From: a virus | Length of the DNA stretch: 64,000 nt | Virus record (IMG/VR): IMGVR_UViG_3300032164_000001 | Strand: one strand, 5' to 3' | Shown: one piece after another, positions 3,160-50,389 of the stretch | Numbering within the stretch: position 1 is the stretch's first letter | Layout of the letters: every line of letters starts with the position of its first letter | Program-made: the position numbers and the translations under genes | The notes under the pieces: model-generated | The model's input: the letters and a program-made list of their open reading frames with translations, nothing else | Databases searched by the model: none | What the model was told of the DNA's origin: nothing

Positions 3160-3230
3160 TTGACAGTTCCACATTGCATAATATAGAATGACGGGTGGTT
3201 GGGGTGGGTTAAGGTTTGTATATAGGGGGT
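3160..3230 (+). promoter_or_regulatory. Repeat A copy 1: sigma70-like promoter + conserved G-rich leader
   Basis: TTGACA-18-TAGAAT then GGGTGGTTGGGGTGGGTTAAGGTTTGTATATAGGGGG. Confidence 0.8.
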
Positions 3231-3270
3231 TGTTAAATGAATCCAAGAGCTTGCGTCAGCACTGAATCAT

Positions 3271-3519
3271 CTAGTAATAGTTTTTGACTTCGGAGACGGC
3301 TTGAACGGTCTGGAGATCTACGTAGACTGGCGTCGAGCGATGAGCGAACTTGTCGCTGTCGAGAATGAGAAGCCCGTCGTCGTCCAATCGGTTGAAGAAA
3401 CCGACGATCACGTGCTGGGCCATCAGAGTCAACTTGATCTCAGTGCCAGGTCGCAGACCGATTTTCCGAAAGAGCTCAGCAGTCATTTGCCCCACTCCGG
3501 GCAGTTCTTCATCACCCAC
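3271..3519 (-). CDS. Small protein, possible Sm/Hfq-like fold
   Basis: IKLTL..HVIVGFF..LDDDGLLIL...YVDL..VQAV resembles the Sm1/Sm2 beta pattern; weak. Confidence 0.3.
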   Translation of the reverse strand: MGDEELPGVGQMTAELFRKIGLRPGTEIKLTLMAQHVIVGFFNRLDDDGLLILDSDKFAHRSTPVYVDLQTVQAVSEVKNYY

Positions 3520-3914
3520 TCGGCCGGGTCGCTCACGATGACCTTCGCAGCCAGATAGCAGGTCCAGACCTCGTAGTCGCGAATCACGACCTCGCAGAGC
3601 GCTTTGGCCGCTTGCCGCATGGCCTCCGTTGGCTCCGTTCGCTCACCCTCCGGGTCGCCGTACTCCTCGTCGAGATACTCCAGGGCCTGCTCGAGAATGA
3701 GCTCCGGTTCGAGATCGGAGATAGAGAGCGCTCTGCTTCGCATGGCCACGAGCTCAAGCGTGGCCGGAAGGGAATCACATGCATCAAGAGCGGCCTCGAT
3801 GGCTTCCTCCAGCTCGGTGTGAGAGTAGCGTTCCTCGTCCGGAGGACCCCAGTAGCAGTCGGAGAACTCCTCCAGGTCAGCCTTGGTCATGTCGTTGTAT
3901 GAAAAAGTCTTCAT
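3483..3914 (-). CDS. Acidic hypothetical phage protein
   Basis: 143-aa ORF with GAGGAG RBS. Confidence 0.6.
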   Translation of the reverse strand: MKTFSYNDMTKADLEEFSDCYWGPPDEERYSHTELEEAIEAALDACDSLPATLELVAMRSRALSISDLEPELILEQALEYLDEEYGDPEGERTEPTEAMRQAAKALCEVVIRDYEVWTCYLAAKVIVSDPAEWVMKNCPEWGK

Positions 3915-4287
3915 CGGTCGACTCCTCTATGGCGTATGTCTATACGAAGAACTTCCTTGGCTTCATAACATGTGGCAAACGGTCCGTGTAGCATTTGGCC
4001 GTCAAAGAAATACCATCCAGGCAGATCGTATCCTAGAGCTTGCCACGAAGCCAAATCCGTCATCGTCAGGCTATCGCTAAGAATGAACACTGTATTGTCA
4101 TGCAGTCCTAGCTCCTGTCTCGTCATGTGCATACTTCACCCATTTCTCCTGCGTTCACCCTCGGACCTGCCGGTGTCTTCTTTGCGCCGATCGTAGCACT
4201 TGCTGCAATACGGCACGAGGACCAGCTTGGTGGGATGCACATCGAGGTAGTGCTTCGTGTTCTCCTTGCAGGTAAGGCAGTATTTGA

Positions 4288-5614: not shown

Positions 5615-5631
5615 TGGAGGTTCATTCCTCT

Positions 5632-6147: not shown

Positions 6148-6156
6148 GCAAGCTCT

Positions 6157-7592: not shown

Positions 7593-7671
7593 GGTTGAGC
7601 AGTCTAGTGTATGATTTTACTCGAGTCAAGTGAGAATTACATTTTTGTCGAGAAAAAGGCACAGAATCTTC

Positions 7672-12337: not shown

Positions 12338-13153
12338 TGCAGGCCGGACATGCTCATTGATCAAATACGTAAGCAGGTAGAGCTAACATTCGAAGTCTCA
12401 AAATGCAAGAAGGAAATGGAAAGCAGGTTGGTAGTAGCCTGCAATAACGGAGCTGGGTGTGTCCTATACGCTATTGGTTCGTGTTGGGAAGCTTGGTACG
12501 AGGGCTCATGCAGTTACGTGCTTGACGACAACGGACTTGATGATGCTCCGGATGGAATCAGCATTTGGGAAGGGCGTATGCTTAGCTGGGGGCCTGACTA
12601 CAATGGAGAGTATGACGCTGAGCTGCGCGGAGAATTTCGTAATCTAACCGAAAAAGAGTGGAAATTGCTGGCTGAGGGTTGCGCACCTTGGGATGAAAAG
12701 GAATGGTTGAAATGACTCGAAAGAAGAAACCACAGAGAGCTGAGTGCCTTGTCTGTGACCCCGTCAGATGATTGGGGTATGTGATGAGAGGAGAAATATG
12801 AATACTACGTTAATCATTGAAATCAAGATTGTCGAACCAGGACATACGTCTTGTAGTGTTTGGGTTCCAGAACGATCTCATGTACTGGTACATGAAGAGG
12901 TTTATATTACAGAGGAGACAAAACCTTCTGAGAGTTGTTCGTGTGGCCAGGGCAAGATTCCCGAAAAGAAGATCTACTTTTGTCAAGGTCCTCGGGGCCA
13001 AATTAGCGGTTTCTCTGTAGCTAATGCAGTAGCTAACTATTGCCAGAGTATTGTTAAATGGTTTACGTGATACATGAAGTGTGTTTGCTGCAACGCAGAG
13101 ATAACAGAACTCACTGGAGCTTTTTGCCTCAAGTGCGGAGAGGATGATTCACA

Positions 13154-13540
13154 ATGATTACAGGAGACCAAGTTCTGGCTCATTTGGTAGGAGATTACTT
13201 TCTACAATCCGACTGGATGGCTACAACTAAGAAGGAACGAATTTTACCTTGTTTCTTTCATGCTGTACTGTATGTACTACCATTCCTGTTTCTGACCAGA
13301 AGTTGGAAGGCGTTGATTGTAATAGGAGTGTCTCATTTTCTAATAGACCACTGGAAGCTTCCTCAGGTTCTGGGTTGGTTAAAGAACTTCCTGGCGCCCA
13401 GATCAACTTGGGTTTCATGGTCGAAGTCCAACTTGGGCTTTCAACCAGATCGTCCTATTTGGTTGGTGGTGTGGTTAGTTATTATATTGGACAATACGCT
13501 ACATGTAGCTGTTAATGGCTTTTGTCTACGATGGATGTGA
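13154..13540 (+). CDS. DUF3307-like membrane protein
   Basis: AHLVGDYFLQSDWMA, HAVLY, SHFLIDH, DNTLH. Confidence 0.8.
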   Translation: MITGDQVLAHLVGDYFLQSDWMATTKKERILPCFFHAVLYVLPFLFLTRSWKALIVIGVSHFLIDHWKLPQVLGWLKNFLAPRSTWVSWSKSNLGFQPDRPIWLVVWLVIILDNTLHVAVNGFCLRWM

Positions 13541-15562
13541 GGATTAACGATGCTAAAGGGACCGGTAAATGACGTAGAACTATCTGAAGCACTGATAGTC
13601 GAGTTAATAGAAGTTGCAAGGACTCCAGTCTAACAGAAGGAAATGACCAGGATGTGGGTAGGTATCATAGTCGGATTCATGTTGGGTATCTGTATCACGT
13701 TACTAACAGGACTTTGGATTGAATACCTCGCAAACAGAGAATACTGGCTCTTGAAGTTCTTATTCCCACTTTGGATGTCTAGACGTACATTCAAGAGAGC
13801 TGTTATTGAACGTGAGATTTTCGCTATCTTCGGAGATCCAAAGAGATGACTGACCCTATATGGCAAGAAGCCCACGAAGAATCGATACGTCGACGCACCA
13901 GACTACTACGAAGGATGGTTGGTGATGAGATGAAAAAGTGGTGGTTACTTGTTCAAGGGTCTTTGATGTTTGCGCTTTGTGTTGTACACCTGCATTCGAA
14001 TCCAATAGCTAATCGCGCATGGTATATCTCTGGGCTGATTTGCGGTTTCGCATGCCTGGTAATGAGTACAGTGGAATGGCTTAGACCAATAGAAAGAATG
14101 TACAAGAAGGCCATATCCAAAGTTCCCTTCACGGATGGCGACGCAGTTCACACCGGCCCTTATCGAACTAATGAAGTGCCACTGGCACAGGATGAGCTGG
14201 GTGGTGCGTCATCTTGTGATACCATTCTCCGACTATTAGAAAGAGAGCCAGCGGAGTCTTTTGCAATAGTAGCCGACGGAGTGAAATTGATTGTATCTCC
14301 TAAGTTGGAAATACGAGTCTCTCCTTACTATAGCAGATTGTCTGTTTGCGATCCCACAAAACACTCAAGCAAACCAGTATGGCGTAGCCTGACTACTACT
14401 TATCGCCAAGACAGAAGAGCAAAGAAGATATGGTCGTGTGTTTCATCACAGTTAGAGACTAAACAACAAGAGGACCTTGCTAAGGCTGTAGCGCAGGAAC
14501 TGCAATATAAGAGGAAAGGTGAACTATGATTACAGGAAACCAAGTTCTGGCTCAATAGGAGTAGTGATGATCAGCTTTGAAGACTTCCGCCTCGCCGACG
14601 GCAACATCGACTGGAGAGCCCTTCAGCAGGCAGAGGTGAAAGCAGGAGAGCGCTGTTATCGATGCTACGCGATGATACGTCCGCTCACGAAGTCAACTGG
14701 CGAGCGGCTGTGCTATGACTGCAAACAACTCGATGAGGCCAAGACGGAAGAGGTCGAACACCAGAGGCTCATACGTTGTCCGAAGTGCAGTCACCTGTCG
14801 GACGTCACGGAATGGGATTGCGACTACGCTGAAGTGTTCACCGATGGTGAGCACGACGTGCAATGCGATGAATGCCAACACGAGTTCGATATCTCCACGC
14901 GCGTGGAGTTCTATTTCACCAGCCCAAAACTAGACGGAGGAGGTTGACAGTGAGCAATTACACTCTGGAAGAATGCCGGAACATGATATCTGGTGCTCTG
15001 TTTGACTTCTGCACGTATCTCACTGGCCGCCCTTGTCACGAAACGCTGCAGGGCAGTGGATTCAAAATCGGGGCTGAGCATGATGTCTATCCAGTGCTGG
15101 AGGCGCTCAAGGCGTGGGCGCAGCTGCGCGGGAACACCGATGCCTGGCTCGACCATCCAGACGTTCGCGACTGGAATCACATCCTGCTCACCTGTGAGCA
15201 TCCATCGGCACAAATCGATAGGCTGGCCAAAGTGATCCTCAACCTGTGCTCCGAGCGCATCATCGAAGGCAAATCGGCCTGTGATATCGCAACAGACGTC
15301 ATCAAAGAGCGCTACCATTGAAAGGACAGAATGCGTTGTACATGTGATGACTTCAGTGACTCCCCATGTCCCGAACACGGATATGGAGAATTCGAATGCG
15401 ATTGCGGCGTTCGCTTTGGGGCACCACTCGTCGCCAAGAACCTCATGATCATCGAGTGCCCTAAATGCAAACAGCGGTATGTTGGCGAAGAAGATATGGG
15501 TAACGGCTACTGGAGAAACGTCGGTACCGTGCCTGCCGGGCCCAAGGTATGAAGGATATGAG

Positions 15563-16634: not shown

Positions 16635-16669
16635 ATCCTCAGTTTCTTCTCGACATCGCCCTAGTTTTC

Positions 16670-16740
16670 TTGACACGCAGGCGCAGTTCGGTCTAAAATA
16701 CGGGCGGCTTGGGTGGGGTAAGGTTATGTATATGGGGGTT
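16670..16740 (+). promoter_or_regulatory. Repeat A copy 2
   Basis: TTGACA-18-TAAAAT-ACGGGCGGCTTGGGTGGGGTAAGGTTATGTATATGGGGG. Confidence 0.85.
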
Positions 16741-16823
16741 TTCTACTTGCACATCGAATACATAAGGTCAAGTCTTGAATAAAACAGTGTCGCCCTTTAC
16801 AGCTTGGTGAAGGGAGCGGTGCA

Positions 16824-17432
16824 ATGACCAAACTTGCTGGACGACAGATTCCAAGTCTTGACGCATTGCGTGAATTGTTCAAGCTACTCGGAGAGAACGG
16901 AACCGCTCTTGAGGAGCGAGACCGCAAGCTGCTCATCATCTGGGAGACACGTGCGCGCGAGCGTGTTCTGAACAAGAGCCCGAGCCCGCTGGCTGCACCG
17001 CATCGATGGAAACTTCCGGACGAACGGCAGAGTCTGACGCATCGATTCCAGATGACAGAGGAGAACGGCGGGCCGTTGAAGGCCTATCTGACTTTCGGGA
17101 TGTACGCCGATGGCAAACTGGGGGAGCTGTTCTGCAGCATCGCAAAGGAGGGTTCCTTCGTTTCAGGGATCATGGATGCTCTGACGTGCGTCATCTCCAT
17201 CGGCTTGCAGTACGGTGTGCCCCTTGACATGTTCACACAGCGTTTTCGCTACTCGAAGTTTCAACCGGCGGGCATTGTGCAAGGAGCGCCGGAGGCACTG
17301 AAGGGTCATGGCTTCTTCAGCTCAATCCTGGACTACATCGCGGCGGTCTTGGAACTGCGCTTCCCATCCGGTTTGCTGCATGCCCCCGACGCGCCACATT
17401 TGTTGCCCAAACCGTTGGCTTCTACGACCTGA
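16824..17432 (+). CDS. Stand-alone class II ribonucleotide reductase C-terminal (TSCPD-like) domain
   Basis: RWKLPDERQSLTHRF...YLTFGMYADG.LGELF..IAKEGS...SIGLQYGVPL...KFQPAG...SILDYI. Confidence 0.8.
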   Translation: MTKLAGRQIPSLDALRELFKLLGENGTALEERDRKLLIIWETRARERVLNKSPSPLAAPHRWKLPDERQSLTHRFQMTEENGGPLKAYLTFGMYADGKLGELFCSIAKEGSFVSGIMDALTCVISIGLQYGVPLDMFTQRFRYSKFQPAGIVQGAPEALKGHGFFSSILDYIAAVLELRFPSGLLHAPDAPHLLPKPLASTT

Positions 17433-17620
17433 CTGGAGGACACAGAATGCTCATCTTGATCATGTGCTTGCTACTTGCTCTTTCCGTCATCCTGATCGGC
17501 TCACCGGCCTGGAAGAACCCGCCCGTGGGCGTGGGAATGCTGATCGCCGCAGCCGCAGCGGCCGTCTGCATCTACCAGATGCTTGGCCATCGTTAACAGG
17601 CTGCAGGCCTCGTCTGAGGG

Positions 17621-17695
17621 TGCCCGCGGAGGGAGTCGAACCCCCACCCATCTAGCCTCCTTACGGCGTAGTGCTCACCAATGAGCTACGCGGGC
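17621..17695 (-). ncRNA. tRNA-like RNA with a bulged anticodon stem (loop GUAAGGA, nominal anticodon AAG)
   Basis: Acceptor GCCCGCG/CGCGGGC-A; D arm GCTC-ATTGGT-GAGC; T arm GGGGG-TTCGACT-CCCTC; anticodon arm CTA(C)GCC/GGCTAG. Confidence 0.75.
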
Positions 17696-17699
17696 ACAG

Positions 17700-17782: not shown

Positions 17783-17807
17783 TCCCCGCCAGTATGTAAA
17801 CGGGGAG
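17783..17807 (+). repeat. Repeat B copy (TCCCCG-CCAGTATGTAAA-CGGGGAG hairpin)
   Basis: Identical 25-mer at 47343, 47633, 48907, 49931, 50401 and 50491. Confidence 0.95.
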
Positions 17808-18671: not shown

Positions 18672-19493
18672 TTACCTGCGCCAGCCGGATGGTGGCTTGC
18701 AGAAACTGGCGCCCGGAAATGCTTGTGGAATCTGCGCCTTCGGTGCGATGTCAAGATTGACTCCGCGCTTGCGTAGGCCCTCCCTCGAGTCATAGAAGAT
18801 CTCCAGCACGTCCGCGGGAGCGGTGGTTGCCTTGACGAAGCTCACCTCCGAAACACGATGCTCACTGGCCTGGCCAAACCCGGTACCGACGCTCTGCTGA
18901 ACGAAGTTCACGTTCTCTACATGCTCGCTCTTGAGTTGATCACCACCGAAGCTGTAGGAGTGACAGCTCGCGTTGTACGCAAAGGTGTCAGGCGCGACGT
19001 TCGTCTGGCTCGTACCATATACTGGACTGTGTGAGGGCGTGTAGTAGTACTGACAAGGCTGGCAGGGAGGATGCGATGTGGTGAGCCGCCAGGTGTGGAT
19101 GATTGAATCCACGTGCACGTGCTCGTGAAAGACGGCAAGGCCGATGACGCCCACGTTGCGCGACGTGACTGTCTTCGTGGCATAGGCCTCGGCCAGCTTG
19201 GAGAAGATGAACTTGGCCACTTCTTCATTGGAGACACGCCAGCCAGGAATGTCGAGGTGAGAGTTGGCCTGGAGCACATAGCCGTTCGAGTTGACACCGG
19301 CCAGCTCTCCATCCATCACGGACAGTCCGTCGACGGATGGAACGGCTAGGACGCGGGCGTGGCTCCGGTTCAGAATGCGGAGTATGAACTCGCTTCCCTT
19401 CCGTCCCTCGATGTAGCACTTGCCTTCGTGTCGCCACTCACGCACGGACTTGCCATGCACGCGCACCTCGAGCGTGCAGATCCTGCTTTCCAT
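18672..19493 (-). CDS. Conserved hypothetical protein (SVDGLSV..GY...IPGWR / GVIG / GTGFG family)
   Basis: Recognisable motifs; GAGGAG RBS; - strand promoter TTGACA(19591)-18-TAAGGT. Confidence 0.7.
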   Translation of the reverse strand: MESRICTLEVRVHGKSVREWRHEGKCYIEGRKGSEFILRILNRSHARVLAVPSVDGLSVMDGELAGVNSNGYVLQANSHLDIPGWRVSNEEVAKFIFSKLAEAYATKTVTSRNVGVIGLAVFHEHVHVDSIIHTWRLTTSHPPCQPCQYYYTPSHSPVYGTSQTNVAPDTFAYNASCHSYSFGGDQLKSEHVENVNFVQQSVGTGFGQASEHRVSEVSFVKATTAPADVLEIFYDSREGLRKRGVNLDIAPKAQIPQAFPGASFCKPPSGWRR

Positions 19494-19604
19494 GAATTTT
19501 CTCCTCGGTCGTCTTCTGCCAGGCACCACGCCTGGACTTCATGCGACCACTTTTGCCGTCAACCTTAATCGCCCAGCGAGTCAGCTGTCAAGGCGATTTT
19601 TTCA

Positions 19605-19676
19605 TTGACAGGGTAACGGGAATGTACTAAAATACGGGCGGCTTGGGTGGGGTAAGGTTATTGTATGTAGGGTTTT
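19605..19676 (+). promoter_or_regulatory. Repeat A copy 3
   Basis: TTGACA-17-TAAAAT plus the G-rich leader. Confidence 0.85.
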
Positions 19677-19907
19677 CTGCTTGCCCATCGTCGGAGAAGG
19701 GACGTCCATGAAGACGGTGACGATCAGCCTCACAGCGGGCGCTCTTGATGAGCTCCAGAGCTGGCTCCTCATCAAGCAGGTTGCCGGGCACAACGTTGGC
19801 CGTGACTACGACCTGGCGGTTCAAGTGCTGGGGGCCAAGGACGGCGGGAGGGTGGAACTGGCCGGGCGGGATGAGAATCACATGCACAAAAAAGTAGCAT
19901 CTAGTTC

Positions 19908-19936
19908 TTGACAGCAGACTCACTCTTTGCTAAAGT
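19908..19936 (+). promoter_or_regulatory. Promoter for the tRNA-mimic/vWA locus
   Basis: TTGACA-17-TAAAGT, about 40 nt upstream of RNA1. A second extended -10 (TGaTATAAT, 20186-20194) precedes RNA2. Confidence 0.65.
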
Positions 19937-20400: not shown

Positions 20401-20548
20401 AAGTCTTGAGCAACGTGTAATAGGGAGAAGCAGACAAGTCAATAGCTCAACGGTAGAGCGCAAGACTAATAATCTTGATGTTATCGGTTCAAATCCGATG
20501 TGACGTAGCAAAAAACAGCTTTTCTCACTCGCGCGTTGCTCAAGACTT
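20401..20548 (+). ncRNA. RNA3: Y-RNA (YrlA)-like topology, a long terminal duplex enclosing a tRNA-like domain
   Basis: 20401-20431 pairs with 20518-20548 (18 bp + 4x4 loop + 9 bp). Inside: D arm TAGCTCAACGGTAGAGC, CAAGA-CTAATAA-TCTTG, ATCGG-TTCAAAT-CCGAT, and only a ~4-bp acceptor remnant. Confidence 0.8.
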
Positions 20549-20614: not shown

Positions 20615-22495
20615 ATGCAATCCATCGAGGCGCTCGGTCCAGCCGAGCGCATCATCGAAGCAATCACCAAGTACACTGATCACTGTCAGCATAATCGTCC
20701 AGGAACCATCGTTCCTGACGCAAGACAGCTTGTTGGCGTGCGCTGGGAGCAGGCCATCTGGTGCAAGGAGGGAGAGGAGAAGGTCGTCTACCGTGTGACG
20801 AAGACCGGGAAGAAGCAGACAAAGGCACGCATCGGTGTACTGGAAGCTGACGGGATGGTGAAGGATGCTGGAGTGGAGGTTGCCCGATGGCGAGAGCCAG
20901 GGCTGTTCCCTGAGGTTGTGGTGCACCTGTACCGGCAAGTGGCAGAGGTCTGGAAGCTCGACAACGAGTTCGCTGCCAGGTGGGCCTCGTGGGCCTTCGA
21001 GCACGAAGAGAACAGGGACCTGAAGATCCTGCTGGCCGCGTTCCTGCTGGTGCAGAATCGCTTCGGGGAGAAAGTTCCAGACTCGACACTGGCTGACGAG
21101 GACTACCGAACTGTTGGTGAGGCCATGTGCCTGCTCCGTCGGAAGACGGGCACCTTCAATCCGAAGATGCTCCTGCGTATCGGCGAGGTGCTGGAGCTGC
21201 CAGGTGTGATTGCAGTCAACCGTGAGCTCGGATTTGGACAGACAGGACGAAGGGCGGTGACCGGCCGGTACCGTGGCACGGTGGAGAAGTGGCTCCGATA
21301 CTACGAGAGCAACCCGGCCGTGCTCGAGATGTTGGTCAAGGCGGGCTTCCGTCGGTCCATCATGCAACTGTGTCGTGTCGTTGGCTACAAGCCAGAGACC
21401 GATGCATTCTTTGCCAAGCTGCGCTGGAAGCAGATTCAGGCGAAGGATGGCCGGCGAGGCATGGCGATCGGAAGTACGCTGACGGCGGCGGAGTCGTGGA
21501 AGGAACTTGATGAAGCGGAGATCTGCAAGCGCATCGTTTCTTCCGGTCTTGGCTGGAAGCGCATCGTGGGCATGCTGCCCTTCGGCGTTACTCCAGCCAT
21601 CATGGCCGCCGCAATCGAGGGGGAGACCCTGAGCGACGCGGACCTCGTCATTCTCACACCAACACTGGAGGAGCTCGGCCTGCTCTCCGTACCGGAGATA
21701 ACGGCACGCTGGAAGAGCGCAACGGAGCGAGCGGAGAACCAACGGGCGGCCCACATTGCACGTAACGTAAAGTCGGAGGCGGTGAAGGAACAGCTGCAGG
21801 TTGCAGTCGAGAAGGCTGTACAGAAGGCCGTCGAAGAGGTGACTCGTGACCTGCGAGTGTATGTTATTGTTGATAAATCCGGTTCGATGCGAGGAGCGAT
21901 CGAGCTGGCGAAGGAGTACCTGGCGAAGATGGTGGTGGCTTTCCCCCTGGACCGGCTGCACGTCTGTGTCTTCAACACCGTCGGGGTGGAAGTACAGATT
22001 CGTGTTCCAACAGCGGCTGGAGTATCTCAGGCATTCCGTGGGCACACGGCCGGCGGAGGTACGAGTTACGCTGCAGGGGCGTGGTGCCTCTTGCGGGACC
22101 ACAAGCCAAGGGAAGGCGAGGATGCACTGTTGATCTTCGTCGGAGACCAGGAGGACAACGGGGTCGAGCAGCTCGTGCAAGTGGTGAAGGGGTCAGGTGT
22201 AGCACCAGTGGCCTTCGGCATGCTACACGTGGCAAGTGCACCGGGAATGCAGCATGGAGGCTGGTACGGCTCGCCGGATGTTGTGGAACGTGCGGCGCAG
22301 GCCCTTGCCATCCCCTGTTTCAAGATAGCGGAGGAGATCTTCTCCGACGCGTACGCAGTGCCACGGACACTACGCAACCTGATTGCATCCACTCCGGTCA
22401 CGCATCCGACAATGCGCAAGACGGCGCCAAAGCGCAAGTCGCTCATCGAACAAATCTTGTCGACGCCACTTCTACAGCGTCCAGTATGGGCGTAG
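20615..22495 (+). CDS. vWA-domain protein with a large helical, basic N-terminal region (TROVE/Ro60-like architecture)
   Basis: MIDAS VIVDKSGSM, GGGTS, IFVGD in the C-terminal ~220 aa. The N-terminal ~400 aa look helical and Arg/Lys/Trp-rich. The Ro-like call is inferred from architecture and RNA neighbours. Confidence 0.7.
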   Translation: MQSIEALGPAERIIEAITKYTDHCQHNRPGTIVPDARQLVGVRWEQAIWCKEGEEKVVYRVTKTGKKQTKARIGVLEADGMVKDAGVEVARWREPGLFPEVVVHLYRQVAEVWKLDNEFAARWASWAFEHEENRDLKILLAAFLLVQNRFGEKVPDSTLADEDYRTVGEAMCLLRRKTGTFNPKMLLRIGEVLELPGVIAVNRELGFGQTGRRAVTGRYRGTVEKWLRYYESNPAVLEMLVKAGFRRSIMQLCRVVGYKPETDAFFAKLRWKQIQAKDGRRGMAIGSTLTAAESWKELDEAEICKRIVSSGLGWKRIVGMLPFGVTPAIMAAAIEGETLSDADLVILTPTLEELGLLSVPEITARWKSATERAENQRAAHIARNVKSEAVKEQLQVAVEKAVQKAVEEVTRDLRVYVIVDKSGSMRGAIELAKEYLAKMVVAFPLDRLHVCVFNTVGVEVQIRVPTAAGVSQAFRGHTAGGGTSYAAGAWCLLRDHKPREGEDALLIFVGDQEDNGVEQLVQVVKGSGVAPVAFGMLHVASAPGMQHGGWYGSPDVVERAAQALAIPCFKIAEEIFSDAYAVPRTLRNLIASTPVTHPTMRKTAPKRKSLIEQILSTPLLQRPVWA

Positions 22496-29962: not shown

Positions 29963-30237
29963 AGGAAGACCGATGTTCTTCTACCTGCACTCCGATCATG
30001 CCTGTTTAACTCCAATCAAGGAGAGACAGGCATGCAATACGGGAGCACGACGAAGTTCAAAGTCTGGACGGACATCGATTTCTCGCTCAGTGAACTGAAG
30101 GGTCTTCGACGAAGGGGCGTGCTGCAACGACGCTTCGCCCGCGCGAGAAGATTCTACAAGAACCAGCTCGCCCGCCAGCGCCGTAGCTGGAACAGGAACA
30201 TCCTTCTGCAAGAGGTAGCAGAAAATAATAATTTATC

Positions 30238-30310
30238 TTGACAGATCAGCCTAATTCGATCTAAAATACGGGCGGCTTGGGTGGGGTAAGGTTATTGTAT
30301 GTAGGGTTTT
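30238..30310 (+). promoter_or_regulatory. Repeat A copy 4
   Basis: TTGACA-18-TAAAAT plus a leader identical to copy 3; faces - strand genes. Confidence 0.85.
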
Positions 30311-30445
30311 CTACGTACTTCCGAGGAGTTATGCCAACAGTATGCCACGGGTCGGTGTCTGGCCGATCAGAGCGAAGAATCGGTAATCGGGCCAGAGGTC
30401 TCCAACGAATGGCTCAGTGAGCCAAGTGAATGGTTCGGCGAACCA

Positions 30446-30760
30446 TCACCCGTTTGAGCATGCTGGCTGGGGTAGGCCGGCTATCTTGCAAGCGAGGGAC
30501 AATCCCGCGGGGAACAGCTTGTAGAGCGTCGTCAGCGTGAGCTTGCACCCGGTGCAGACCTCGCGAACGTGTGGCGAGCGGTGCTTGCTGACATAGAAGC
30601 ACCTGAGAAACTCGATGACCTCGATGTGTGGCACGTCGAGCTCGAGGCCGAGCTTCCGGGCATAGGAGACGGCAATGGGCGGCTCCCAGTCACTTGCATG
30701 GACGAAGTAGCCGTTGCCATCCAGTTGGATGATACGGCCAAGGGTGTTCAACGTCTTCAC
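30446..30760 (-). CDS. TusE/DsrC-family sulfur relay protein
   Basis: LDGNGYF...DW...A...GLEL...H.EVIEFLR.FY...P...LYKLFPAG...ACKIAGLPQPAC. Confidence 0.9.
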   Translation of the reverse strand: MKTLNTLGRIIQLDGNGYFVHASDWEPPIAVSYARKLGLELDVPHIEVIEFLRCFYVSKHRSPHVREVCTGCKLTLTTLYKLFPAGLSLACKIAGLPQPACSNG

Positions 30761-32378: not shown

Positions 32379-32645
32379 CTACTGCTGGGCGGACTTCACC
32401 TTGGCGGCCTTGGCGGCCTGGCGTTGAGCCTCGGCGGCGAGAAGGGTTTGGGCTCCACCGAGATTCGTCTCCACCTTCTCGACGGCGTCGAGGATGGAAT
32501 CCCTGATGAACTCCGAACGGGAGGAGTAGCCAGCGGGCCGCCAGGCGGAGTTGAGACGGTCGAGCTCAGCGCTCTCGAGAGTACCGTTGACCATCGTGAG
32601 CTTGCGCTCGCTACCATGGGCCAGTGCCTGATCGATTCTGGACAT
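32379..32645 (-). CDS. CopG/RHH-family regulator
   Basis: MVNGTL..AELDRLN...GYSSRSEFIRDSI. Confidence 0.7.
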   Translation of the reverse strand: MSRIDQALAHGSERKLTMVNGTLESAELDRLNSAWRPAGYSSRSEFIRDSILDAVEKVETNLGGAQTLLAAEAQRQAAKAAKVKSAQQ

Positions 32646-34452
32646 GATTTCTTTTTACCTCTTTCTGCTTGTGAGTTTCCTTACCATTTCAACCATGGTA
32701 AGGACAGCTGTGGCTGAGGCAGCCACTACGGATTTGACGAGCCGCCTCGCCTGTGAAGATAGAATGGCCTGCTCCTGTGCTACGGCTTCTTCCCTGGTGT
32801 CGTGCGTACCCAGGACCCGCTTACCATCCCGAGTGTACAAGACCCACTTTCTGCCAACATGCCTTATCATTTTGAGAGCCCGGGGCTAATCGAGAGACCG
32901 CCATAACATGGATTGGATGAAGAAAGCAAGCCTTAATTATGGGGAGTTGGCGATTCGTGCGTTGAATTTGCTGCATTCACGCTTGAGCCTGCTTTCCTGC
33001 CGCAGGAGATGCTGCACGTAGTAGATTAAGCATTCCTTGGTTGCATGCTCCCAGCAACACGTGAGACCTGGAGCCGCATCTTTCTCGCACTGTCCAAGAC
33101 TCGCACCGCCAATGCGGACGGAAGGATGCACCGAGACACGATGAACATGATCACACTTAGTTTTCAAATTGATCCCCATGCGTATGTCAGGCGTCGGTCC
33201 TCCCACATACATGGCATGTCAACGGGTTAACCTCATGTTGGTCAACAAGCTTTTGCTTAGGCTTGTTCTCAGGTGGAGGGTGTAAGTAGAAAGCGCAGGA
33301 GGATGCCAACAGGTCAGTAAAAACCTGCACTTCTTCTTCATTGAGTGGCTTGCTTGTGACGGTCAATCTTCTCTTGTCTTTGGTAAGAGCGGGAATCAAA
33401 CGAAACGATTTGGAGATGAGATGTACTGGTGGCCAGAATGCAGCATCTGCAAACGTTCGTAGGTTCTTACACGATTTACAAGTTACATCAGCAGTCTTCT
33501 CTGTCAGCAAGTGTTGTGGGACTGGCAGTAACCGGTGGCCTGCATGCCCGATTGGGTGGGAGTACGGTCGACATAGAGCTACGGCAGTACCGCGCCAGTC
33601 GTATACCTTGAAGTGGACAACCCTTTTCACTTGGATCTCCCCTACAGAACTAACTCATCGAGTTGCGGCAGAATAGACTTACACTTCCACTTGAGGAATC
33701 CCCATGCGTATGTCAGGCGTCGGTGTCGATTCAGTTGATTGCGGCAGTGTAAACAGTGCAAACAGTGTAAACAGTGCAAACAGTGTACGATAGAAACAGT
33801 CTCACGGTCTGCCTTTCCGATCTGGAAACTGACTCGCGATGACAGCGATCTCAAGAAGTCTGCGTTCATGTCTCAGAGCTTGGTCGAGTTTCACATAGGT
33901 AGCGACATGCTTCGTACCAGTGGCGACGTCAAAAATCTTGAAGTACACGACGCCGGTGTTGGTGGAGAGCTTGATCATCCTACAACTCGATCGGCTTAAA
34001 CTTGATGCGAGGAGTGTCGGCTATGTTCTCCTTCGGGGAGCAATCGGTATCAGACAGTGACATGTTCAACTCCTCATTGTGCTGGTGCCCCCAAGAAAGA
34101 TAGACTTCAACTGCATCGGCATCGTGAAGGGGAACATAGTCAAGCTCGAAGAGCCATGCTCCGAAGGATCGCTCCACCGAGCGCTTGCGATCGAGCCATT
34201 CTGCATGCTCAACGCGTCGGCGCTCGTAGAGCTCCTTGGCCTCCTTGACGGTCAGGTCGTTGGGGTAGTCGGCCAGACGCTCCCCTGGCCAGTTGGGCCT
34301 TTGCTGCTGCTTGTTGAACTCCTGCTTGGCTTGCATGTAGTGATCGAATGCCTTGCGCACGTCGGTTTCGATCCTGCTGTCTGATGCGTCATCCGGGGAG
34401 AGCGCGTACGTGTCACCGTGCCATTCTCCGCATCTGTAGTGCTGCACTCTGA

Positions 34453-34710
34453 CTAGTCTGCGCATGGCTGCTCTTCGGTGATGAAGTAGCTGTTGACGTT
34501 CACATGGTGCTTCTTGCTGTTGAACCCAACGACTCTGCGCTGGACATGCTCCTTGCGGAGAAACCCCTTGAGCACAAGTCGGTCGAGCATGTTCCTTGTG
34601 TAGGGCTTGCAGTCCTTGAGCACAGAAGCTAGATTTTCGATGGTTGCACCAGGATGCTGCCTGATGAAGTCGAGCAGTTGCATTTGCTGTGGACTCGGAG
34701 TGTAGGTCAT
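34453..34710 (-). CDS. Winged-HTH DNA-binding protein
   Basis: QLLDFIRQHPGATIENLA...LDRLVLKGFL. Confidence 0.65.
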   Translation of the reverse strand: MTYTPSPQQMQLLDFIRQHPGATIENLASVLKDCKPYTRNMLDRLVLKGFLRKEHVQRRVVGFNSKKHHVNVNSYFITEEQPCAD

Positions 34711-34926
34711 TCGGAAACAGTGCTCCCCATGTGTCAGCTCGGGCGTTGGTGTAAGATCAGCTCGGGAGAACGTGTCAGTTGCACGAGTTGTTCGACAGTG
34801 TAATCTTTTGGCCCTGTGAGCACTCCTTCAGGTTGGACCTGTCTGGCATCACCCGCTGAGCATTTGCCCACAGGGCCACTCAAGGTTCTAGCCGATGGCG
34901 CTGTAATTGACAATACTCTATTTTAC

Positions 34927-35199
34927 TCAATCAGGTCCAAGGCCCAAATGCTGCGAGCAGATGAAGTCCTTCTCCAGAGAAACATCTTGCCATGAACCTC
35001 GCAGGTTGAAACGCTTTATCAGGTAGTGCACACGCTGGTTGGCCAGGTCGAGCTCCCGTGCGATCTCCCTCACGGTCATGTCGGGGAGTGCCCTGCGGAT
35101 GGCTTCGTTTGTCAGCTCGCGGCAACGCATCGCCGAGCTCCACATCTCGATGCGGGCCGTTCTCGCCAAACCAAGGAGATGTTTAACTTCCTGTTGCAT
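34927..35199 (-). CDS. HTH protein
   Basis: MTVREIARELDLANQRVHYLIK. Confidence 0.6.
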   Translation of the reverse strand: MQQEVKHLLGLARTARIEMWSSAMRCRELTNEAIRRALPDMTVREIARELDLANQRVHYLIKRFNLRGSWQDVSLEKDFICSQHLGLGPD

Positions 35200-35485
35200 G
35201 TTCTGAATCTGGACTGCCGGTGCCGGTTAAGGAGTCGCCGTTGGCTGTGTGTGGTTTGCAGCACCGGCAGTCCATCATTCCGGTATGTTGTAGCTGAGAT
35301 GCGCGCCTGTTGTCAAGCAGATTCGTTACGCCTTCTTGTTGCGTGTTTTTAGCTTGCATTTTGGTGCAAGGTATTGCAGAGTGGGCCGGTCAGCGTTCAG
35401 CAAACAGTTCAAGTATTGAATCGGAAAAACAACTGGTAAATCGCCGGCTTTGCTGTAGAATTTAGCACGTTTGCCGACTTTTATG

Positions 35486-35553
35486 TTGACATTACACAGC
35501 GGTCTAATATAGAATGAGGGCGGTTTGGGTGGGTTGAGGTTTGTATATGGGGG
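35486..35553 (+). promoter_or_regulatory. Repeat A copy 5
   Basis: TTGACA-18-TAGAAT plus the G-rich leader. Confidence 0.85.
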
Positions 35554-35595
35554 CTTTCCTGAGCAATACTGTAGACTTGAAGAGGAAATCCCGAA

Positions 35596-35841
35596 ATGGA
35601 CGAGCAGAAGAAAGCAGTGATCATCCTGCTGAGCGGTGGTCCGAAGAGCACCCGAGAGGTTGGAGCATTGCTCTACGACGTGTGTGCGAGGAAGTTCCTC
35701 GTCAAGGCTCCTGTCAGCTCGGCTGCGGACAGAAAGAAGGCCTGGGCCAGGAAGCTGCTGTCACGGATGGCAGGGGAGGGTCTGCTGCAACGACGGGAGG
35801 ATGGACGCTTCGAGGTGACCGAGAAGGGTAAAGAGGGTTGA
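35596..35841 (+). CDS. Winged-HTH-like protein
   Basis: L..GPKST.EV...LSRM..EGLL...F.VTEKG. Confidence 0.55.
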   Translation: MDEQKKAVIILLSGGPKSTREVGALLYDVCARKFLVKAPVSSAADRKKAWARKLLSRMAGEGLLQRREDGRFEVTEKGKEG

Positions 35842-38690: not shown

Positions 38691-39376
38691 CTGAGGGCAG
38701 TGTAATGGAGAGTAGCGAAACGGCTTCAAAGGACTCTACACGGTTTCATTATCGGAAGACATTGCGTATTGTGCTGGAGGCCAATAGTGATTCTGCATTA
38801 GACTGGTTCAACAAGGAGCATGTCAAGGCAGTTATGGAGTATACGACACCGGGGGACACCACATTTACACTCATCATGGAGAAATAGGGCACAGAAAGGC
38901 AGCAGGCTTCCAGTGCAATATTCTTCCATTCATGGATTTGCGTGGTTAGCTTTTTTTCGACATTCCGCGGATAGTGATGAAACATGGCTGCACAGATTAC
39001 AGAATTTGAAGCTAGGATGGAAGCAACGATGGTGGAGGCGGTGTTGTTGTCGCCATCAGCCGTAGCACTTGCTGCGTTGCAAGGATCCGCTTCAGCGAAT
39101 CCACAGAAGATCGCAAACGCGGCAATCTCGGCAGTCGACCAGGCGTTAAAAGAACCCGGTGCGCTGGTGCGCATCGCTTGTGATAATCCGATGGATGCCA
39201 TCGTGATGTCTGATATCTTGGACAGATTGTGTAGCACACTTGTGGGTGTGAGCCTGATTGCGGAGAAGAGCACGAAGGCGTTCCTCGAACTGGACAACGG
39301 CTCGGCCATCTACATCGCGTTGAAGAGGAAAGCGTAGGGTGAACGGTGGAATGGCAGAATCGACGCACTATTTTTC

Positions 39377-39443
39377 TTGACACACACGCCACATTGGGCG
39401 TAAAATACGGGCGGTTGGGTGGGAATGAGGTTTGTATGGGGGG
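39377..39443 (+). promoter_or_regulatory. Repeat A copy 6
   Basis: TTGACA-18-TAAAAT plus the G-rich leader. Confidence 0.85.
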
Positions 39444-40148
39444 TATTGTTCCTGTAGTTAGCCTGCGATTCTGCACTGTTGACTCATTTGATCCCCATGT
39501 GTCAGCTCGGGCGTCGGTGTCGATTCGTTAGAAGTGATGCGCCAGATCGGGCGTAGCGAGCGGGGGGGAGTTTGAACACTGTCTCTGCCAGCTCTATGCC
39601 GAAGCGGTTGAGCGAGGAGACTGCTGGTGACGCACGAGGCGATGAAGGTCACGATGAAGGTCACGGTGGAATTCGGGATGTCTTCCGTCAGATCAAGTGG
39701 CGAAGTCGAAGGCGGTGAAAGCAGAGGACATGGAGAAAATCGAAAGGGTGTGCTGGTTGCGACTGTTGCGTTGCTGGTGACCTTCATGCTGACGCTTTGT
39801 GTCCATACTGGCCTGACGCTACACGTGATGCTCACGCTGCTTCAAGGAAGGAAGACAACATGATCGAGCAGAAGACAATGCCTGGCCGTTGGAGACTGGA
39901 CAGAGCGGCGGACATCAATGAGATGCTGCTGGCTGTGGCCGACCTGGCGGAGGAGCGAGGAGACACGCTACTGCCAGTGGTGTTGCGCAAACTGGCTAGC
40001 GGGCACATTGAGGCAATAGAGTACACCGCGACAGGGGAGCATTCCTACGAACTTGTGCAGCGTTGGACAATACGGATTGTGCAGTTTGCAGCCAGGATTA
40101 TGTAGCAGGCCAACAGTATTTAATATTCTGTGCGTTCCTTGCTGCTCA

Positions 40149-41097: not shown

Positions 41098-41126
41098 TTG
41101 ACAAACGTCCCTACCTAGAGTAGAAT
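41098..41126 (+). promoter_or_regulatory. Sigma70-like promoter
   Basis: TTGACA-17-TAGAAT. Confidence 0.7.
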
Positions 41127-43277: not shown

Positions 43278-43342
43278 AGTCTTATACCAACAGTATGTAA
43301 ACGGGGAATGGTTCCGAACGGCGCAGTTGCATACTGTTGTTC

Positions 43343-44800: not shown

Positions 44801-44869
44801 ACTATTCGTGGCGTTTACAGACTGCACCGTTGGCATATGTTGGGGAACGGTGGTTACCTGCATCGCATA

Positions 44870-44907
44870 TGGGGACGGCGCCTTTCGGCGCCGTCCCCAT
44901 TTTTTTG
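44870..44907 (+). terminator. Rho-independent terminator
   Basis: GGGGACGGCGCC-TTTC-GGCGCCGTCCCC followed by ATTTTTTT. Confidence 0.9.
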
Positions 44908-45849: not shown

Positions 45850-48800
45850 TCAACGCACATACAAACCCGAAACGGGTGACACCGTCACCCGTATGCCAGG
45901 GATGGTACCTTGGCACTGATGAGGGAGCCACGCACTCTGATGCTAACGAAGTCTACCATGTTCGTCGAGTACCAGCGCCTCATGACAGAGGCGAGCTACG
46001 CTGGCTCGTCGGCTGGTAACGCAACGCCCTCGGTTGCACTGCTGGCTGACATAGATGCTCGGCGGCTCACGGTTGCCAATGCGCTGACAAGCGAGGCGAA
46101 TGCCATTCGCCGTCGGATGCAGACACTTGCAACACAGGCCAATGCACTTGGCGTGACCTACAAACCATCGGCCGATGACATGGCCGACCTTGCCAGCTTG
46201 ACATCGGCCATTGCCGACTTGCGCCGACTGGTGCGCTCTTTCGCTACAGACCGATCCGACATCGCCCTGTCACGTGGTAGGGCCAGGACTACCATGGGCA
46301 AGACAGCCAAGCGTGGCACGCCCAAGGTGCTCGGCGGGCCGGTCACTTCCACCGTCCCCCGTGCCTTCACGGGCACCAATGAGCCCACGCCGTCCGACTA
46401 CCTGGTGTGCCCCCGATGCGGCGTGCGCTATGACTGCCACACAAGTTGCACACAGTGCACCTGCGGTGGCACACTGCGGCACGATTGGACCAGCCCAGCC
46501 ATGTCAGAGCGGCAGGCCGTGGCAACTTGCCGTGCTACCGAAGCCACATACGAGCACACTGTTGACGATACTGGCATCTGGCAGGGCACGGTTGCCATTG
46601 CCGGTAACCCACTGCTGGCAACTATTACAGCAGCATGCTGCGCCCAACACCCGGCACAGCCAGACGTGCTAGCCGCTGCTCACGAGGAGCACTGCCAGTC
46701 ACATGCGGACTGGCTTGCCAGTCACGCTCGTGCGGCACGCATTGCAGCCAAGCGCCCTCGTGGCAAGCGAGGTGGCAGACGGGGATAGATGCCCCGAACT
46801 TGCGTGCTCTGACAACTTAATACCGCGCTCCTGGCCCTCATGGGTTACAGTGCAGCCGCGCTTCATGGCTCCCCGCCAGTATGTCAACATGCTGCGGGCT
46901 AGCGCCACGAACGTATACCAGAGGATCGGGCTAGCGCCACGAACGTATACCAGAGGATACAGCCCTGGTAACTCCAGGAACAAACAGTGTATCCTCCAGT
47001 ATACTTCTACCCGTGCTTGTCGAAGCACAGCAGAACACGGCAAAGCACGGGCTGAAGCACGGCAAAACACGGGTGGAGCACGGAGTGACACAGTGCTGGC
47101 ACAGTGAATGGCACAGTGCCGACACAGTGCCGAGCCATCCCCGTGCAAACACATGGCTAAACCCCATGAGTCATCCCTTGAGTTCTGCGGCTTGAACGCC
47201 ACAGACAGCCGGAGTGGGAGGCGTGCAGCCTCGGACTGCGCCGACTGGCAGACCTGCCTGTAGAACTGGACCGCTCCAGTGATGGCGATGAACCGACAGG
47301 CGCAGCCCAAACGTATCACGACAGCCTGTAGCATACAAGGGCTCCCCGCCAGTATGTAAACGGGGAGTCTACAAACGCCACGAAGACGTGCGCGGACTGA
47401 GACGGCAAAGCGCCATACAAGCCGAAGCCGAAGCCCGGGCTGAGACCTCATCCGATATGGGCTACCTGGGCTCTGTTTCGATACGACGATCACCCAGCTG
47501 TGGACTTTTTTGTGTTGGGTGGACAGCCGGGGGTTGTCTTCGCCCACCCTGTCGGCTTCATGTGCAAGACAGCTGAGATGCCGTTGGCAGCTGCGCTTGC
47601 GCTGTGTGCGCGAGCCGTGAAGTCGACTATCTTCCCCGCCAGTATGTAAACGGGGAGCCGACAAACGGGGAGCCAACAACGCCGGTACTCCGCTACTCCG
47701 ACACAGCCGGTACTCCGGCGCACAGTGGCATGTCTTGGCACACTGTGGGGAGCTGAGACTGTGAAGCCGGTGCTGAATGCAATGTCGAATGAGCAGACTG
47801 GCCGGGCGTTGGAAGCCGTAGCCAAACTGCATGCTGCGTTGACCTGATTCCTGCAACTCCCACAGGTGAAGAGGAGAACAGTAATGCGGCGTACTATCAG
47901 AGTCAGATATGGGTTGACAACAGAGGCAAGCGTGGCACCCGTGTGGTCTACGACTACATGAACGGTTACTACTCGAGGAGTGGAGAGAAGTGAAGAGCAT
48001 AGCAGAAACACTAGACCACGCAGACTGGTGGCTTCATCAGTACATGGGTCTTCACTGGATCATTCGTAAAGATGGACTCTCCTTGGTTAAGTGGTTTCAG
48101 ACTAAACTCGGCAGGCAGAGCCGATGCTTAATCACCCATCGTAGATATTGGGTTTGGGAGAGACCAAACTGGACGCTGTTTGTTCACAACATTGGCGGGA
48201 TCTCGTTCGAAGTCCCTCCCACGTCTACTAAAGCAGAAACTAAAGCAGCCTGGGAAGATTTCCTGACCTCAATAGGAACAAGTGGAAAAGAAACTGCACG
48301 AGAATGGAAAGGGAGAGGTCACCGAATGACTTTGGGAGAGGTCACCGAATGACTTTGAGAGAGGCTATAAAATACCACAAGGAGCTAGAATCTCTAGAAC
48401 ACTCACTGGCAACATCCGGGCAGATTCTACCTCCGGCAGTCTTCAGCCACGCCCAACTCTGCAAGTGGCTGGAGGAACTCCAACAACTACGAAAGCTAAA
48501 ACGGGAGGTCAAGAAGCTGGGCCTTGACATTGATGGAAGTTGAGCAATGGATCCTGGACAGGAAGTTTCCTGTCGATGACCCTTACAGGAGCACCCACAG
48601 TGACACTGAAACAAGCAATCGAACATTACAAGGAGCAGATTCTCTTAGCACCTAGTCCTGCTGCTGAACGATACTACTTGAGATTGGTGAAGTGGCTGAA
48701 TGGTAATGGTCTGGCGGTAGCACGTGTTGATTCGTTCGGGGATGCCTACCTGCTCAACAGGATGGGAGCCCCAGTAGCATACGAGGACGTATGCTACGTT

Positions 48801-49045
48801 GAGAACATGGTTCTCGACGGCTACGCCATTCGGTACGGCGTGACCGTCGTTCGCGATCGGCGTGGGAAACCAGTCGCAGTGCTGCATGCACTGTCGAAAG
48901 GATGCTTCCCCGCCAGTATGTAAACGGGGAGTGCGCGAACGGGGAGCACAGGTCTTGAACCTGTTCAGGGACTCGTACTCCGTCACAGCCAGTACTTCGC
49001 TACTCCACTACTCCGTAGTCATCAAGTGCAAAAGGAGAAGTAGAA

Positions 49046-49930
49046 ATGGCACGAATTGTCACGAGTGTGGCTCAGATTGAGTCACGAGCCGAGCGAGCCG
49101 AACGGCTGCTCGAGTGCAGAGCCGAGTGTGAATGCAATCGGCTCGAACGGGAAGACTTCACCCGTTCGGAAGCCAGAGCCATCATGTCAGCCATGGAGCA
49201 CGATGAGCGTGCACTGCAGGCTGAGCAGAGGGCCGAGAGCAGACGACTCGAGTCGTGGGAGCGAGAGGAAGACAGGCGTGCCGAGTACGAGCTGAGGCGC
49301 TTCACACGCATGCTCAGGACTGCCGTTGCCTTCAACTGGAGTAGCCGGCGGAGCCGGTTACTGCGTATGGCTCGGGCGAAGCGGGCTGAGTACGCTCGTG
49401 CCTACAGGCGCACGTCCGTGTACGTGGTGCGGCCTGGAACTGGAGCCGGAAGCCCAGCATGTCAGCCGAGTGCATCGATCCCGAGTGCATCGATCCCGAG
49501 TGCATCGATCCCGAGTGCATCGATCCCCAAGCCGAGAATGCCGATCACGGGATACAGCTCGGAATACAGCTCGGACTTCTCGATTGCGGATTACACTGCG
49601 TCGAGTAGAGGATCATCCATGGAGGAGAGAGTGATGGACAAACACGACCTCGAGCTGTTGGATGAAGAGCAGCGAGCCGAGCTGAAACTCACCATGTTCG
49701 GGGTGAACGCTCGGAACCGGCCGACGCATGCAACCATGACAGCAGCCGCGCTGTGCTCCTGTCTGGAGACGGCTCCGGGATTCATGCCGCGAGCCGAGTA
49801 CTCGATCGAGAAGTGTGAAGTGCGAATACAGACTGGAACCGCTTCGACTCGCACCGTTCGCGAGATGATGCATTTGGGGAAACCGGGGAAACCGGAGCAC
49901 AAATCGGCTTCGCCGGAACTCAAGTTCTGA
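49046..49930 (+). CDS. Arg/Glu-rich protein with a (PSASI)x4 repeat
   Basis: AAGGAG RBS; flanked by Repeat B copies. Confidence 0.55.
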   Translation: MARIVTSVAQIESRAERAERLLECRAECECNRLEREDFTRSEARAIMSAMEHDERALQAEQRAESRRLESWEREEDRRAEYELRRFTRMLRTAVAFNWSSRRSRLLRMARAKRAEYARAYRRTSVYVVRPGTGAGSPACQPSASIPSASIPSASIPSASIPKPRMPITGYSSEYSSDFSIADYTASSRGSSMEERVMDKHDLELLDEEQRAELKLTMFGVNARNRPTHATMTAAALCSCLETAPGFMPRAEYSIEKCEVRIQTGTASTRTVREMMHLGKPGKPEHKSASPELKF

Positions 49931-50323
49931 TCCCCGCCAGTATGTAAACGGGGAGCACGGAGAAGTGCTGAGTATCCGTGTTCCTGCTACACCGCGCGCA
50001 CCCGCAACGGAGGCCCTCCGAGATGAGGAGAACAGATGATCAGTGCAATAGTAATAGTGCTCAGCGTAGCAGTACTTGCATGGGGAGTGGTGGAGACTCG
50101 ACGCACGGCAAAGCGGACAGCCGAGCTGGAGAAGACCATGGAGCAAGCCATGGCGAAACTCGGTCTGAGTGAGGAGCGCTTCGCTCGAGCCCTGAAGTCC
50201 GCCGTGGATCATGCGTTTCATGGAATTCAAGCCGAGCTCGATTCAGCCGAGTGGGGCGTAGTTCGCAATAGCAAATAGATTCATGGTGGAACAACGGCAT
50301 ACCCGTAACACGTTCTATTTTTC

Positions 50324-50389
50324 TTGACACAGCAACTTGGCATAATGTAAAATATGGGCGGTTGGGTGGGAATGAGGTTTGTATGGGGG
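50324..50389 (+). promoter_or_regulatory. Repeat A copy 7
   Basis: TTGACA-18-TAAAAT plus the G-rich leader, followed immediately by Repeat B. Confidence 0.85.

Follow-up and report, generated by a model that had tools for sequence, protein, structure and literature searches.

A recurrent sigma70-type promoter cassette with a conserved, cytosine-poor G-tract leader in a large uncultured phage

What is a ~40-nt G-rich leader for when it follows one promoter after another along a phage genome, including promoters that point into genes of the opposite strand? The question arises from a 64,000-nucleotide stretch of IMG/VR virus record IMGVR_UViG_3300032164_000001 (hereafter the window), in which a first-pass annotation had noted seven sigma70-like promoters, all on the + strand, fused to a conserved leader with four G-tracts. 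We confirmed that this repeat family is real, with all seven sites found in the sequence and all of them on the + strand. We tentatively favor the idea that the copies are early cassettes of the host RNA polymerase whose leader would act in cis, as a single-stranded header, to protect or commit the transcript. The seven copies and a comparator promoter map as follows.

3150..3234, + strand: cassette copy 1, with the -35 hexamer at 3160-3165, an 18-nt spacer, the -10 hexamer TAGAAT at 3184-3189 and the leader at 3190-3234
16660..16744, + strand: cassette copy 2, with the -35 hexamer at 16670, the -10 hexamer TAAAAT at 16694-16699 and the leader at 16700-16744
19595..19678, + strand: cassette copy 3, with the leader at 19634-19678; the sole copy with a 17-nt spacer
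30228..30312, + strand: cassette copy 4, with the leader at 30268-30312, the same as that of copy 3
35476..35560, + strand: cassette copy 5, with the leader at 35516-35560
39367..39451, + strand: cassette copy 6, with the leader at 39407-39451
50314..50398, + strand: cassette copy 7, with the leader at 50354-50398
41098..41126, + strand: plain promoter TTGACA-17-TAGAAT without a G-rich leader, used as a comparator

Based on an alignment of the copies, the cassette has a fixed order of modules, namely, a T-rich tract (6-10 nt, directly 5' of each -35 hexamer), TTGACA, a free spacer, TA(A/G)AAT, 2-3 nt, GGGYGG, (Y)TT, GGGTGGG(G), 3-4 free nt, RAGGTT, 0-2 nt, TGTAT and, after a further 0-3 nt, a G run (GGG to GGGGGG) followed by a T/C-rich tract. 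TTGACA is exact in 7/7 copies, the -10 hexamer is TAAAAT or TAGAAT and matches TATAAT at 5/6 positions, and the spacer is, as first described, 18 nt in six copies and 17 nt in one, copy 3 (-35 at 19605). With hexamers and spacing within the sigma70-type range (17 +/- 1 bp), the cassettes are predicted to be promoters of this type. In the window, TTGACA-N16-19-TARAAT has eight matches, compared to 0.03 expected from dinucleotide-preserving shuffles, and seven of the eight are cassettes. The leader is similarly overrepresented: the box AGGTT-N0-2-TGTAT occurs seven times in 128 kb (both strands), exclusively in cassettes (0.10 expected), and TTGGGTGGG occurs seven times (0.51 expected), six times inside a cassette, with copy 1 carrying TTGGGGTGGG in its place. 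A chance origin of the promoter and leader repeats is excluded. A fuzzy search of the window for the leader recovered + strand matches only, each of them with a promoter, in agreement with the strand bias noted initially. Together with one copy on a metagenome contig (L046; see below), at least eight cassettes are known.

Conservation is confined to particular parts of the cassette. Over the 45 nt of the leader, pairwise identity averages 0.80, as opposed to 0.50 in the spacers, in the 30 nt further upstream and in the 60 nt downstream, the latter value being the aligner background. These numbers bear out the earlier description of sigma70-type promoters with a free spacer fused to a conserved downstream block. 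The leaders form three subfamilies, among which some positions differ and the core boxes are the same. Their register to the promoter is fixed, with 2-3 nt from the -10 hexamer to GGG and 26-28 nt from the -10 hexamer to TGTAT; moreover, GGGYGG and TGTAT lie 18 nt apart in 5/8 copies, the middle block making compensating 1-nt shifts. Finally, cytosine is nearly absent, amounting to 3 C in 241 nt of leader in the eight copies vs 26% C in the spacers, and to 1 C among the 44 non-G letters of the three subfamily representatives.

Could such a block simply set promoter strength? In that case, a G-rich discriminator and initial transcript would tune open complex formation and escape, and recombination would keep the remainder alike; the downstream regions of strong T5 promoters have been proposed to tune their promoters in a similar manner. 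The sequence GGG-Y|GG does match discriminator and start-site preferences. Also, copies 3 and 4 have identical leaders beside unrelated spacers, and their identity over ~50 nt with sharp boundaries is suggestive of conversion tracts. Recombination is known for the PeSL cassettes of T4-type phages (PMC2839356), although in our comparison of strains no breakpoint fell on any cassette. If the leader were only a strength element kept alike in this way, the cassettes would be an ordinary lineage-specific early-promoter family. We consider this improbable, because conservation runs to about +40, past the reach of an initiating polymerase, the core boxes are kept although the three subfamilies vary, and the promoter at 41098, which has an equally good consensus, is followed by ordinary sequence.

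The sequences that the cassettes head are of several kinds. Genes that lie antisense to, or divergent from, the cassettes are as follows.

3271-3486 and 3483-3914, - strand: two genes (71 and 143 amino acids) antisense to copy 1, both called by public pipelines
30446-30760, - strand: DsrC-like gene (Pfam PF04358, E = 4.9e-20) antisense to copy 4
32379-32645, - strand: RHH gene, divergent from copy 5
34453-34710, - strand: MarR-like gene, divergent from copy 5
34927-35199, - strand: small HTH gene, divergent from copy 5

Copy 1 points into the 3' ends of convergent genes that make up a 4.3-kb - strand cluster, in which the two listed genes are followed by ThyX and others, and copy 4 points into the convergent DsrC-like gene. 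The first-pass annotation was therefore correct that these two copies face real genes of the opposite strand (the pipeline-called pair at 3271-3914 and the PF04358 gene) and that they are not ordinary mRNA promoters. The other copies have cargo on their own strand. Copy 2 lies upstream of a TSCPD-domain gene (16824-17432); copy 3 is divergent from a - strand gene (18672-19493) and upstream of a gene for 67 amino acids (19708-19911); copy 5 is upstream of a gene for 81 amino acids (35596-35841) and divergent from the cluster for small HTH, MarR-like and RHH proteins; and copy 6 is upstream of small + strand genes, the first of which starts at 39627. The genes after copies 2, 3, 5, and 6 were called coding by the gene model and the L046 cassette is followed by same-strand open reading frames (ORFs), so that such ORFs follow at least 5/8 copies. 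Copy 7 heads ~600 nt that score as non-coding. Most genes near cassettes have no Pfam or PHROG match. Since the same module heads coding, non-coding and antisense units, the leader is a property of the promoter class rather than of its cargo. As a separate observation, the - strand genes at 32379-35199 opposite copy 5 and the + strand gene at 35596-35841 have a switch-like layout.

The absence of same-strand cargo at copies 1 and 4 is in line with the initial suggestion of a multicopy small RNA, here one acting in trans. Such a gene would have its promoter and, within ~50-300 nt, a terminator. A predicted promoter is present; however, no terminator-like site was detected within ~200 nt downstream of any copy, and the window contains a single strong intrinsic terminator, at 44869-44900. 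With same-strand ORFs following most copies, the proposal of a free-standing small RNA is not upheld. A related idea is a loading site for a NusG paralogue of the type that RfaH uses. The RfaH ops element, GGCGGTAGnnTG, is likewise a G-rich leader element read on the non-template strand, and in copies 6 and 7 the sequence GGCGGTTGGGTG agrees with it at 11/12 positions, including the GG...TG pause frame. We defined an ops element as GGCGGTAGnnTG with G4, G5, A7, and G8 intact, and the one mismatch in copies 6 and 7 is A7T, a substitution that abolishes recruitment of RfaH in E. coli (Zuber et al. 2018, PMC5995543). In addition, the remaining copies have an extra base that puts the motif out of register, the motif would lie at +1 to +13, too near the start site and within an escaping polymerase, and no NusG-like family is present among the Pfam families listed (25 of 28) for the 106 ORFs. 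An ops/RfaH site, the only concrete lead toward antitermination, was rejected as well, and a small RNA or NusG-type loading site is the least probable of the explanations that we weighed.

We next considered structure and known signals within the leader. Folding of the 50-nt leaders with RNAfold/ViennaRNA, with and without quadruplex terms, was no better than that of shuffled sequences (z-scores of -1.5 to +0.7), and the structure differed from copy to copy; hence, there is no conserved fold. Rfam likewise gave nothing at the cassettes, either for the whole window at gathering thresholds or for 50280-50700, which includes copy 7, at E <= 5. Translation does not account for the leader: ORFs from the shared (A/T)TG-TAT codon encode only 6-41 amino acids, which speaks against a leader peptide; the one longer ORF, for 96 amino acids in copy 5, scores negatively for coding, against 0.29 per codon for the gene for 81 amino acids that overlaps it; and GGGUGGG and AAGGUU are poor or misplaced as ribosome sites compared to the AGGAG sites of the phage. 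By eye, a sigma-dependent pause element was rejected because TAAGGT is replaced by TGAGGT in 4/9 variants and TATnnn lacks the -7 T, and a boxA, SOS box or DnaA box had no consistent match in the leader.

The G-tracts themselves raise the alternative of a co-transcriptional G-quadruplex or R-loop device, in which the G clusters that the non-template strand carries directly behind a strong promoter would give rise to a DNA, RNA or hybrid quadruplex along with a short R-loop. The outcome would be attenuated transcription or primed DNA replication, by analogy with mitochondrial CSBII, ColE1 RNA II and the R-loop origins of T4. All seven window copies have four tracts of three or more G (G3+ tracts), with G4Hunter scores of 1.5-1.7, the leader is nearly free of C, the G run is retained though its position and length vary, and in most copies a T-rich tract comes after it. 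On the other hand, the canonical motif (four G3+ tracts with loops of 1-7 nt) is found in none of the cassettes, each of which needs one loop of 13-17 nt, and ViennaRNA with quadruplex energies predicted none, save one of two tiers when the 50 nt of copy 1 were folded. The L046 leader is conserved through TGTAT and lacks the fourth tract, the terminal G run, and an RNA begun at Y|GG would keep only three G3 tracts. The G-quadruplex potential proposed at first thus stands as far as the four tracts in the window copies go, and does not as far as a canonical motif goes; we regard this potential as marginal on present sequence criteria. Because a quadruplex also leaves the invariant "loop" bases unexplained, and eight or more origins would be many, we give the quadruplex or R-loop device a low probability.

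The end of the block, TATA/TATG followed by GGG(GG), resembles T7- and SP6-type promoters, which have an A/T-rich stretch just before the initiating G run. A second promoter for a phage-encoded RNA polymerase, placed in tandem to give early and later expression, would fit a position-specific block of ~30 bp with divergence starting directly after the G run. Yet, no stand-alone copy exists in the 64 kb, TGTAT and the G run are 0-3 nt apart depending on the copy, L046 lacks the G run, and RNA polymerase families, like NusG-like ones, are missing from the Pfam families listed. Tandem promoters are therefore very unlikely.

A more serious competitor, though in our estimate still an unlikely one, is an operator in duplex DNA, by which a phage repressor or shut-off protein would bind the block from +1 to +40 and silence all cassette promoters jointly. 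Comparable sites are the C1 operators of P1, which are dispersed and asymmetric, and the gp71 sites of mycobacteriophage L5. The block overlaps the predicted start site and keeps a constant spacing to the -10 hexamer, its total length is held constant, G and non-G positions are alike invariant, GGGYGG and GGGTGG form a direct repeat with a distance of ~8.5-9 bp, and the genes for small HTH, MarR-like and RHH proteins that lie divergent from copy 5 in a switch-like layout are suggestive. However, the blocks lack dyad symmetry and are separated by indels of 1-2 nt, stand-alone sites are absent from the window, and the nearby regulators are not known to be linked to the motif. Most importantly, a duplex site has no need of the extreme strand asymmetry and C scarcity, while C would pair with the G-tracts in a single strand; for this reason, we prefer a single-strand reading over an operator. 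The lack of any fold points the same way.

In the single-strand reading that we tentatively prefer, each copy would be a self-contained start cassette for the housekeeping (sigma70-type) RNA polymerase of the host, probably used early. It would consist of a T-rich UP-like tract, TTGACA, the free 18-bp spacer, TARAAT, a GGG discriminator and a start at Y|GG, which is predicted from general rules (pyrimidine at -1, purine at +1) to lie 7-8 nt past the -10 hexamer. Every transcript would then open with a common, unstructured ~40-nt G/U-rich header free of C, of the form GG-YUU-GGGUGGG-NNN-RAGGUU-UGUAU-G run-pyrimidine tract. Acting in cis, this header would be read in single-stranded form, whether in displaced non-template DNA or in the nascent RNA, of which it would be the 5' end; in that terminal position, it would bind a factor or fold into a weak quadruplex. 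It would guard early transcripts from 5'-end-dependent decay and, being poor in C, would keep Rho from loading. The suggested protecting or committing role is based on the observations that untranslated and antisense units are headed, that intrinsic terminators are few and that the location of the element is tied to the extreme 5' end; shielding from decay and from Rho would make output independent of translation.

Several points weigh against this reading. Promoter use, start site and timing rest on consensus rules. The non-G positions TT, T, AGGTT, and TGTAT are invariant, which a quadruplex alone does not explain, so that a specific binding partner would be required. The fixed length between blocks would suit a duplex operator too. 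The usual 5' stabilizer is a hairpin, and we know of no G-rich unstructured stabilizer or antiterminator. All copies come from a single phage lineage with almost no divergence, so that the comparison is a shallow one, and conservation may look stronger than it is if the copies have undergone gene conversion among themselves. A bolder version holds that the C-free G-tract header is a new promoter-coupled single-strand signal that reprograms the host polymerase or the transcript at every early unit, be it as a start-site quadruplex or R-loop or as a non-template or RNA loading site for a phage factor (for termination resistance, attenuation or replication priming); this we think rather doubtful.

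How does the cassette relate to described systems? The closest described class is the PeSL (promoter-early stem-loop) cassettes of T4-type phages (Arbiol et al. 2010, PMC2839356), in which an early promoter of sigma70 consensus is combined with an A/T-rich tract on its upstream side and with a stem-loop. Dozens of them are described, and they sit in plastic regions beside ORFans and recombine mutually (PMC2839356). Both families consist of many dispersed, short non-coding cassettes with a sigma70-consensus promoter and an A/T-rich upstream tract, lie between small genes of unknown function in plastic regions of large phages and would be similar in role; the swapping of sequence between copies, known for the PeSLs, may also take place here. 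They differ in that the PeSL stem-loop (polyG followed by polyC) terminates upstream transcription, whereas the cassette described here has no stem-loop and almost no C; its conserved part lies past the -10 hexamer, within the predicted transcript, is conserved at the level of sequence, and in some copies faces genes of the opposite strand. Because the defining stem-loop is lacking, with no C tract, folding z-scores of -1.5 to +0.7 and no terminator-like site, the cassette is not a PeSL member; relative to that class, the present family adds a header that is conserved in sequence, unstructured and predicted to be transcribed.

A second comparison is with the lambda nut and HK022 put sites, which are processive antitermination signals just downstream of early promoters. 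Like them, the leader would be an orientation-specific, transcribed cis signal after early promoters, and such a signal would explain read-through into untranslated and antisense DNA. Unlike them, it lacks a conserved fold, is placed right at the 5' terminus and exists in eight or more copies, whereas nut and put are defined hairpins found twice per genome at variable distances from the promoter. If our reading is true, a large phage tags coding, non-coding and antisense transcripts of the host polymerase with a common unstructured G-rich 5' signal, which would set it apart from nut, put and PeSL, all of them based on hairpins, and would amount to an expression module that is compact and portable. 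The cassette would then also offer a simple handle on the early regulon of this uncultured phage, whose host is probably a sulfur cycler, and a natural test case in a bacterial virus for promoter-proximal G-tract biology.

To what extent does the cassette occur outside the window? A single scan of JGI metagenome contigs yielded 69 matches, 6 of which had the full promoter and leader (from sediment) and belong to the same phage population. Five of these six contigs are near-identical strains of window regions (90-99% identical), and the sixth, L046, is an additional locus with flanks that have no homologue in the window. Two patterns searched in IMG/VR gave chance matches only, and GTDB, represented by one genome per species, gave 24 matches with 0 in a promoter context. 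Using TSCPD homologues, we identified distant relatives (52-59% identity, GC 62-65%, gene order partly kept), in which neither the cassette nor sigma70-consensus promoters of its type were found. Overall, the cassette is lineage-specific and matched nothing in the searched libraries and papers. A clean insertion of copy 2 upstream of the TSCPD gene cannot be claimed: in the relatives, a dNK gene precedes TSCPD, and the upstream neighbor of copy 2 is a different gene. Two of the distant relatives (L072 and L073) have large tRNA arrays, of a dozen or more, downstream of the TSCPD region. Among the strains, the ~1.2 kb at 12715-13953 of the window are replaced by ~170 bp in a 99%-identical contig (L041).

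The carrier reads as a novel, large uncultured phage of ~180 kb and about 56% GC. One window protein exactly matches a protein on a 180,372-bp ENA metagenome contig, a second was found on many short contigs, one of them a JGI metagenome contig, and the window had no nucleotide match among the 50,697 phage records of INPHARED. Few window proteins match Pfam or PHROGs; the recognizable genes encode ThyX, a dNMP kinase, MazG, a DNA methylase, the TSCPD protein, a ThiF/E1-like protein, a vWA protein, the DsrC-like protein and an AAA+ ATPase with a LAGLIDADG intein. The phage uses canonical AGGAG ribosome sites and has several ordinary sigma70-like promoters besides the cassettes, which together fit a host with a standard transcription apparatus. 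The DsrC-like protein hints at a sulfur-cycling host, and the distant relative L072 likewise encodes DsrC. Other features of the window are as follows.

17618-17696, - strand: tRNA-Leu(AAG)
20436-20507, + strand: tRNA-Ile(AAU)
20615-22495: vWA (Ro60-like) gene
45865-45933, + strand: type II hammerhead ribozyme (Rfam RF02276, 50.5 bits, E = 2e-7), between two + strand genes
50402..50513, + strand: hairpin repeat CCCCGCCAGTATGTAAACGGGG, two copies (50402 and 50492), the first cargo of copy 7
58209-61112, + strand: AAA+ ATPase split by an intein with a LAGLIDADG domain

In both tRNAs the wobble position is occupied by A, a feature uncommon in bacteria. The gene directly before the intein-bearing ATPase (57172-58212, + strand) has a precomputed AcrVA2-like Pfam match on the source contig.

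The non-coding stretch headed by copy 7 is itself rich in repeats. The first CCCCGCCAGTATGTAAACGGGG hairpin begins 3 nt past the copy 7 leader, and the stretch at 50520-50750 contains tandem repeats, with GCGAGCGGCGCCCAACCAGAACAGGA present twice and GAACTCCTTACCTGTGATA about four times. The hairpin forms part of a second repeat family, (C/T)TCCCCGCCAGTATGTAAACGGGGAG, which occurs at 17784, 47344, 47634, 48908, 49932, 50402, and 50492, always on the + strand, with degenerate copies at 43285 and 46871 and a half-copy at 3146-3155; a partial AAACGGGGAG often comes after it. This hairpin resembles a CRISPR repeat or a site of RNA processing, and neither Rfam nor an exact search of IMG/VR gave a match for it. 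In the strain contig L059, 2/3 identity breakpoints fall on a repeat of this hairpin family.

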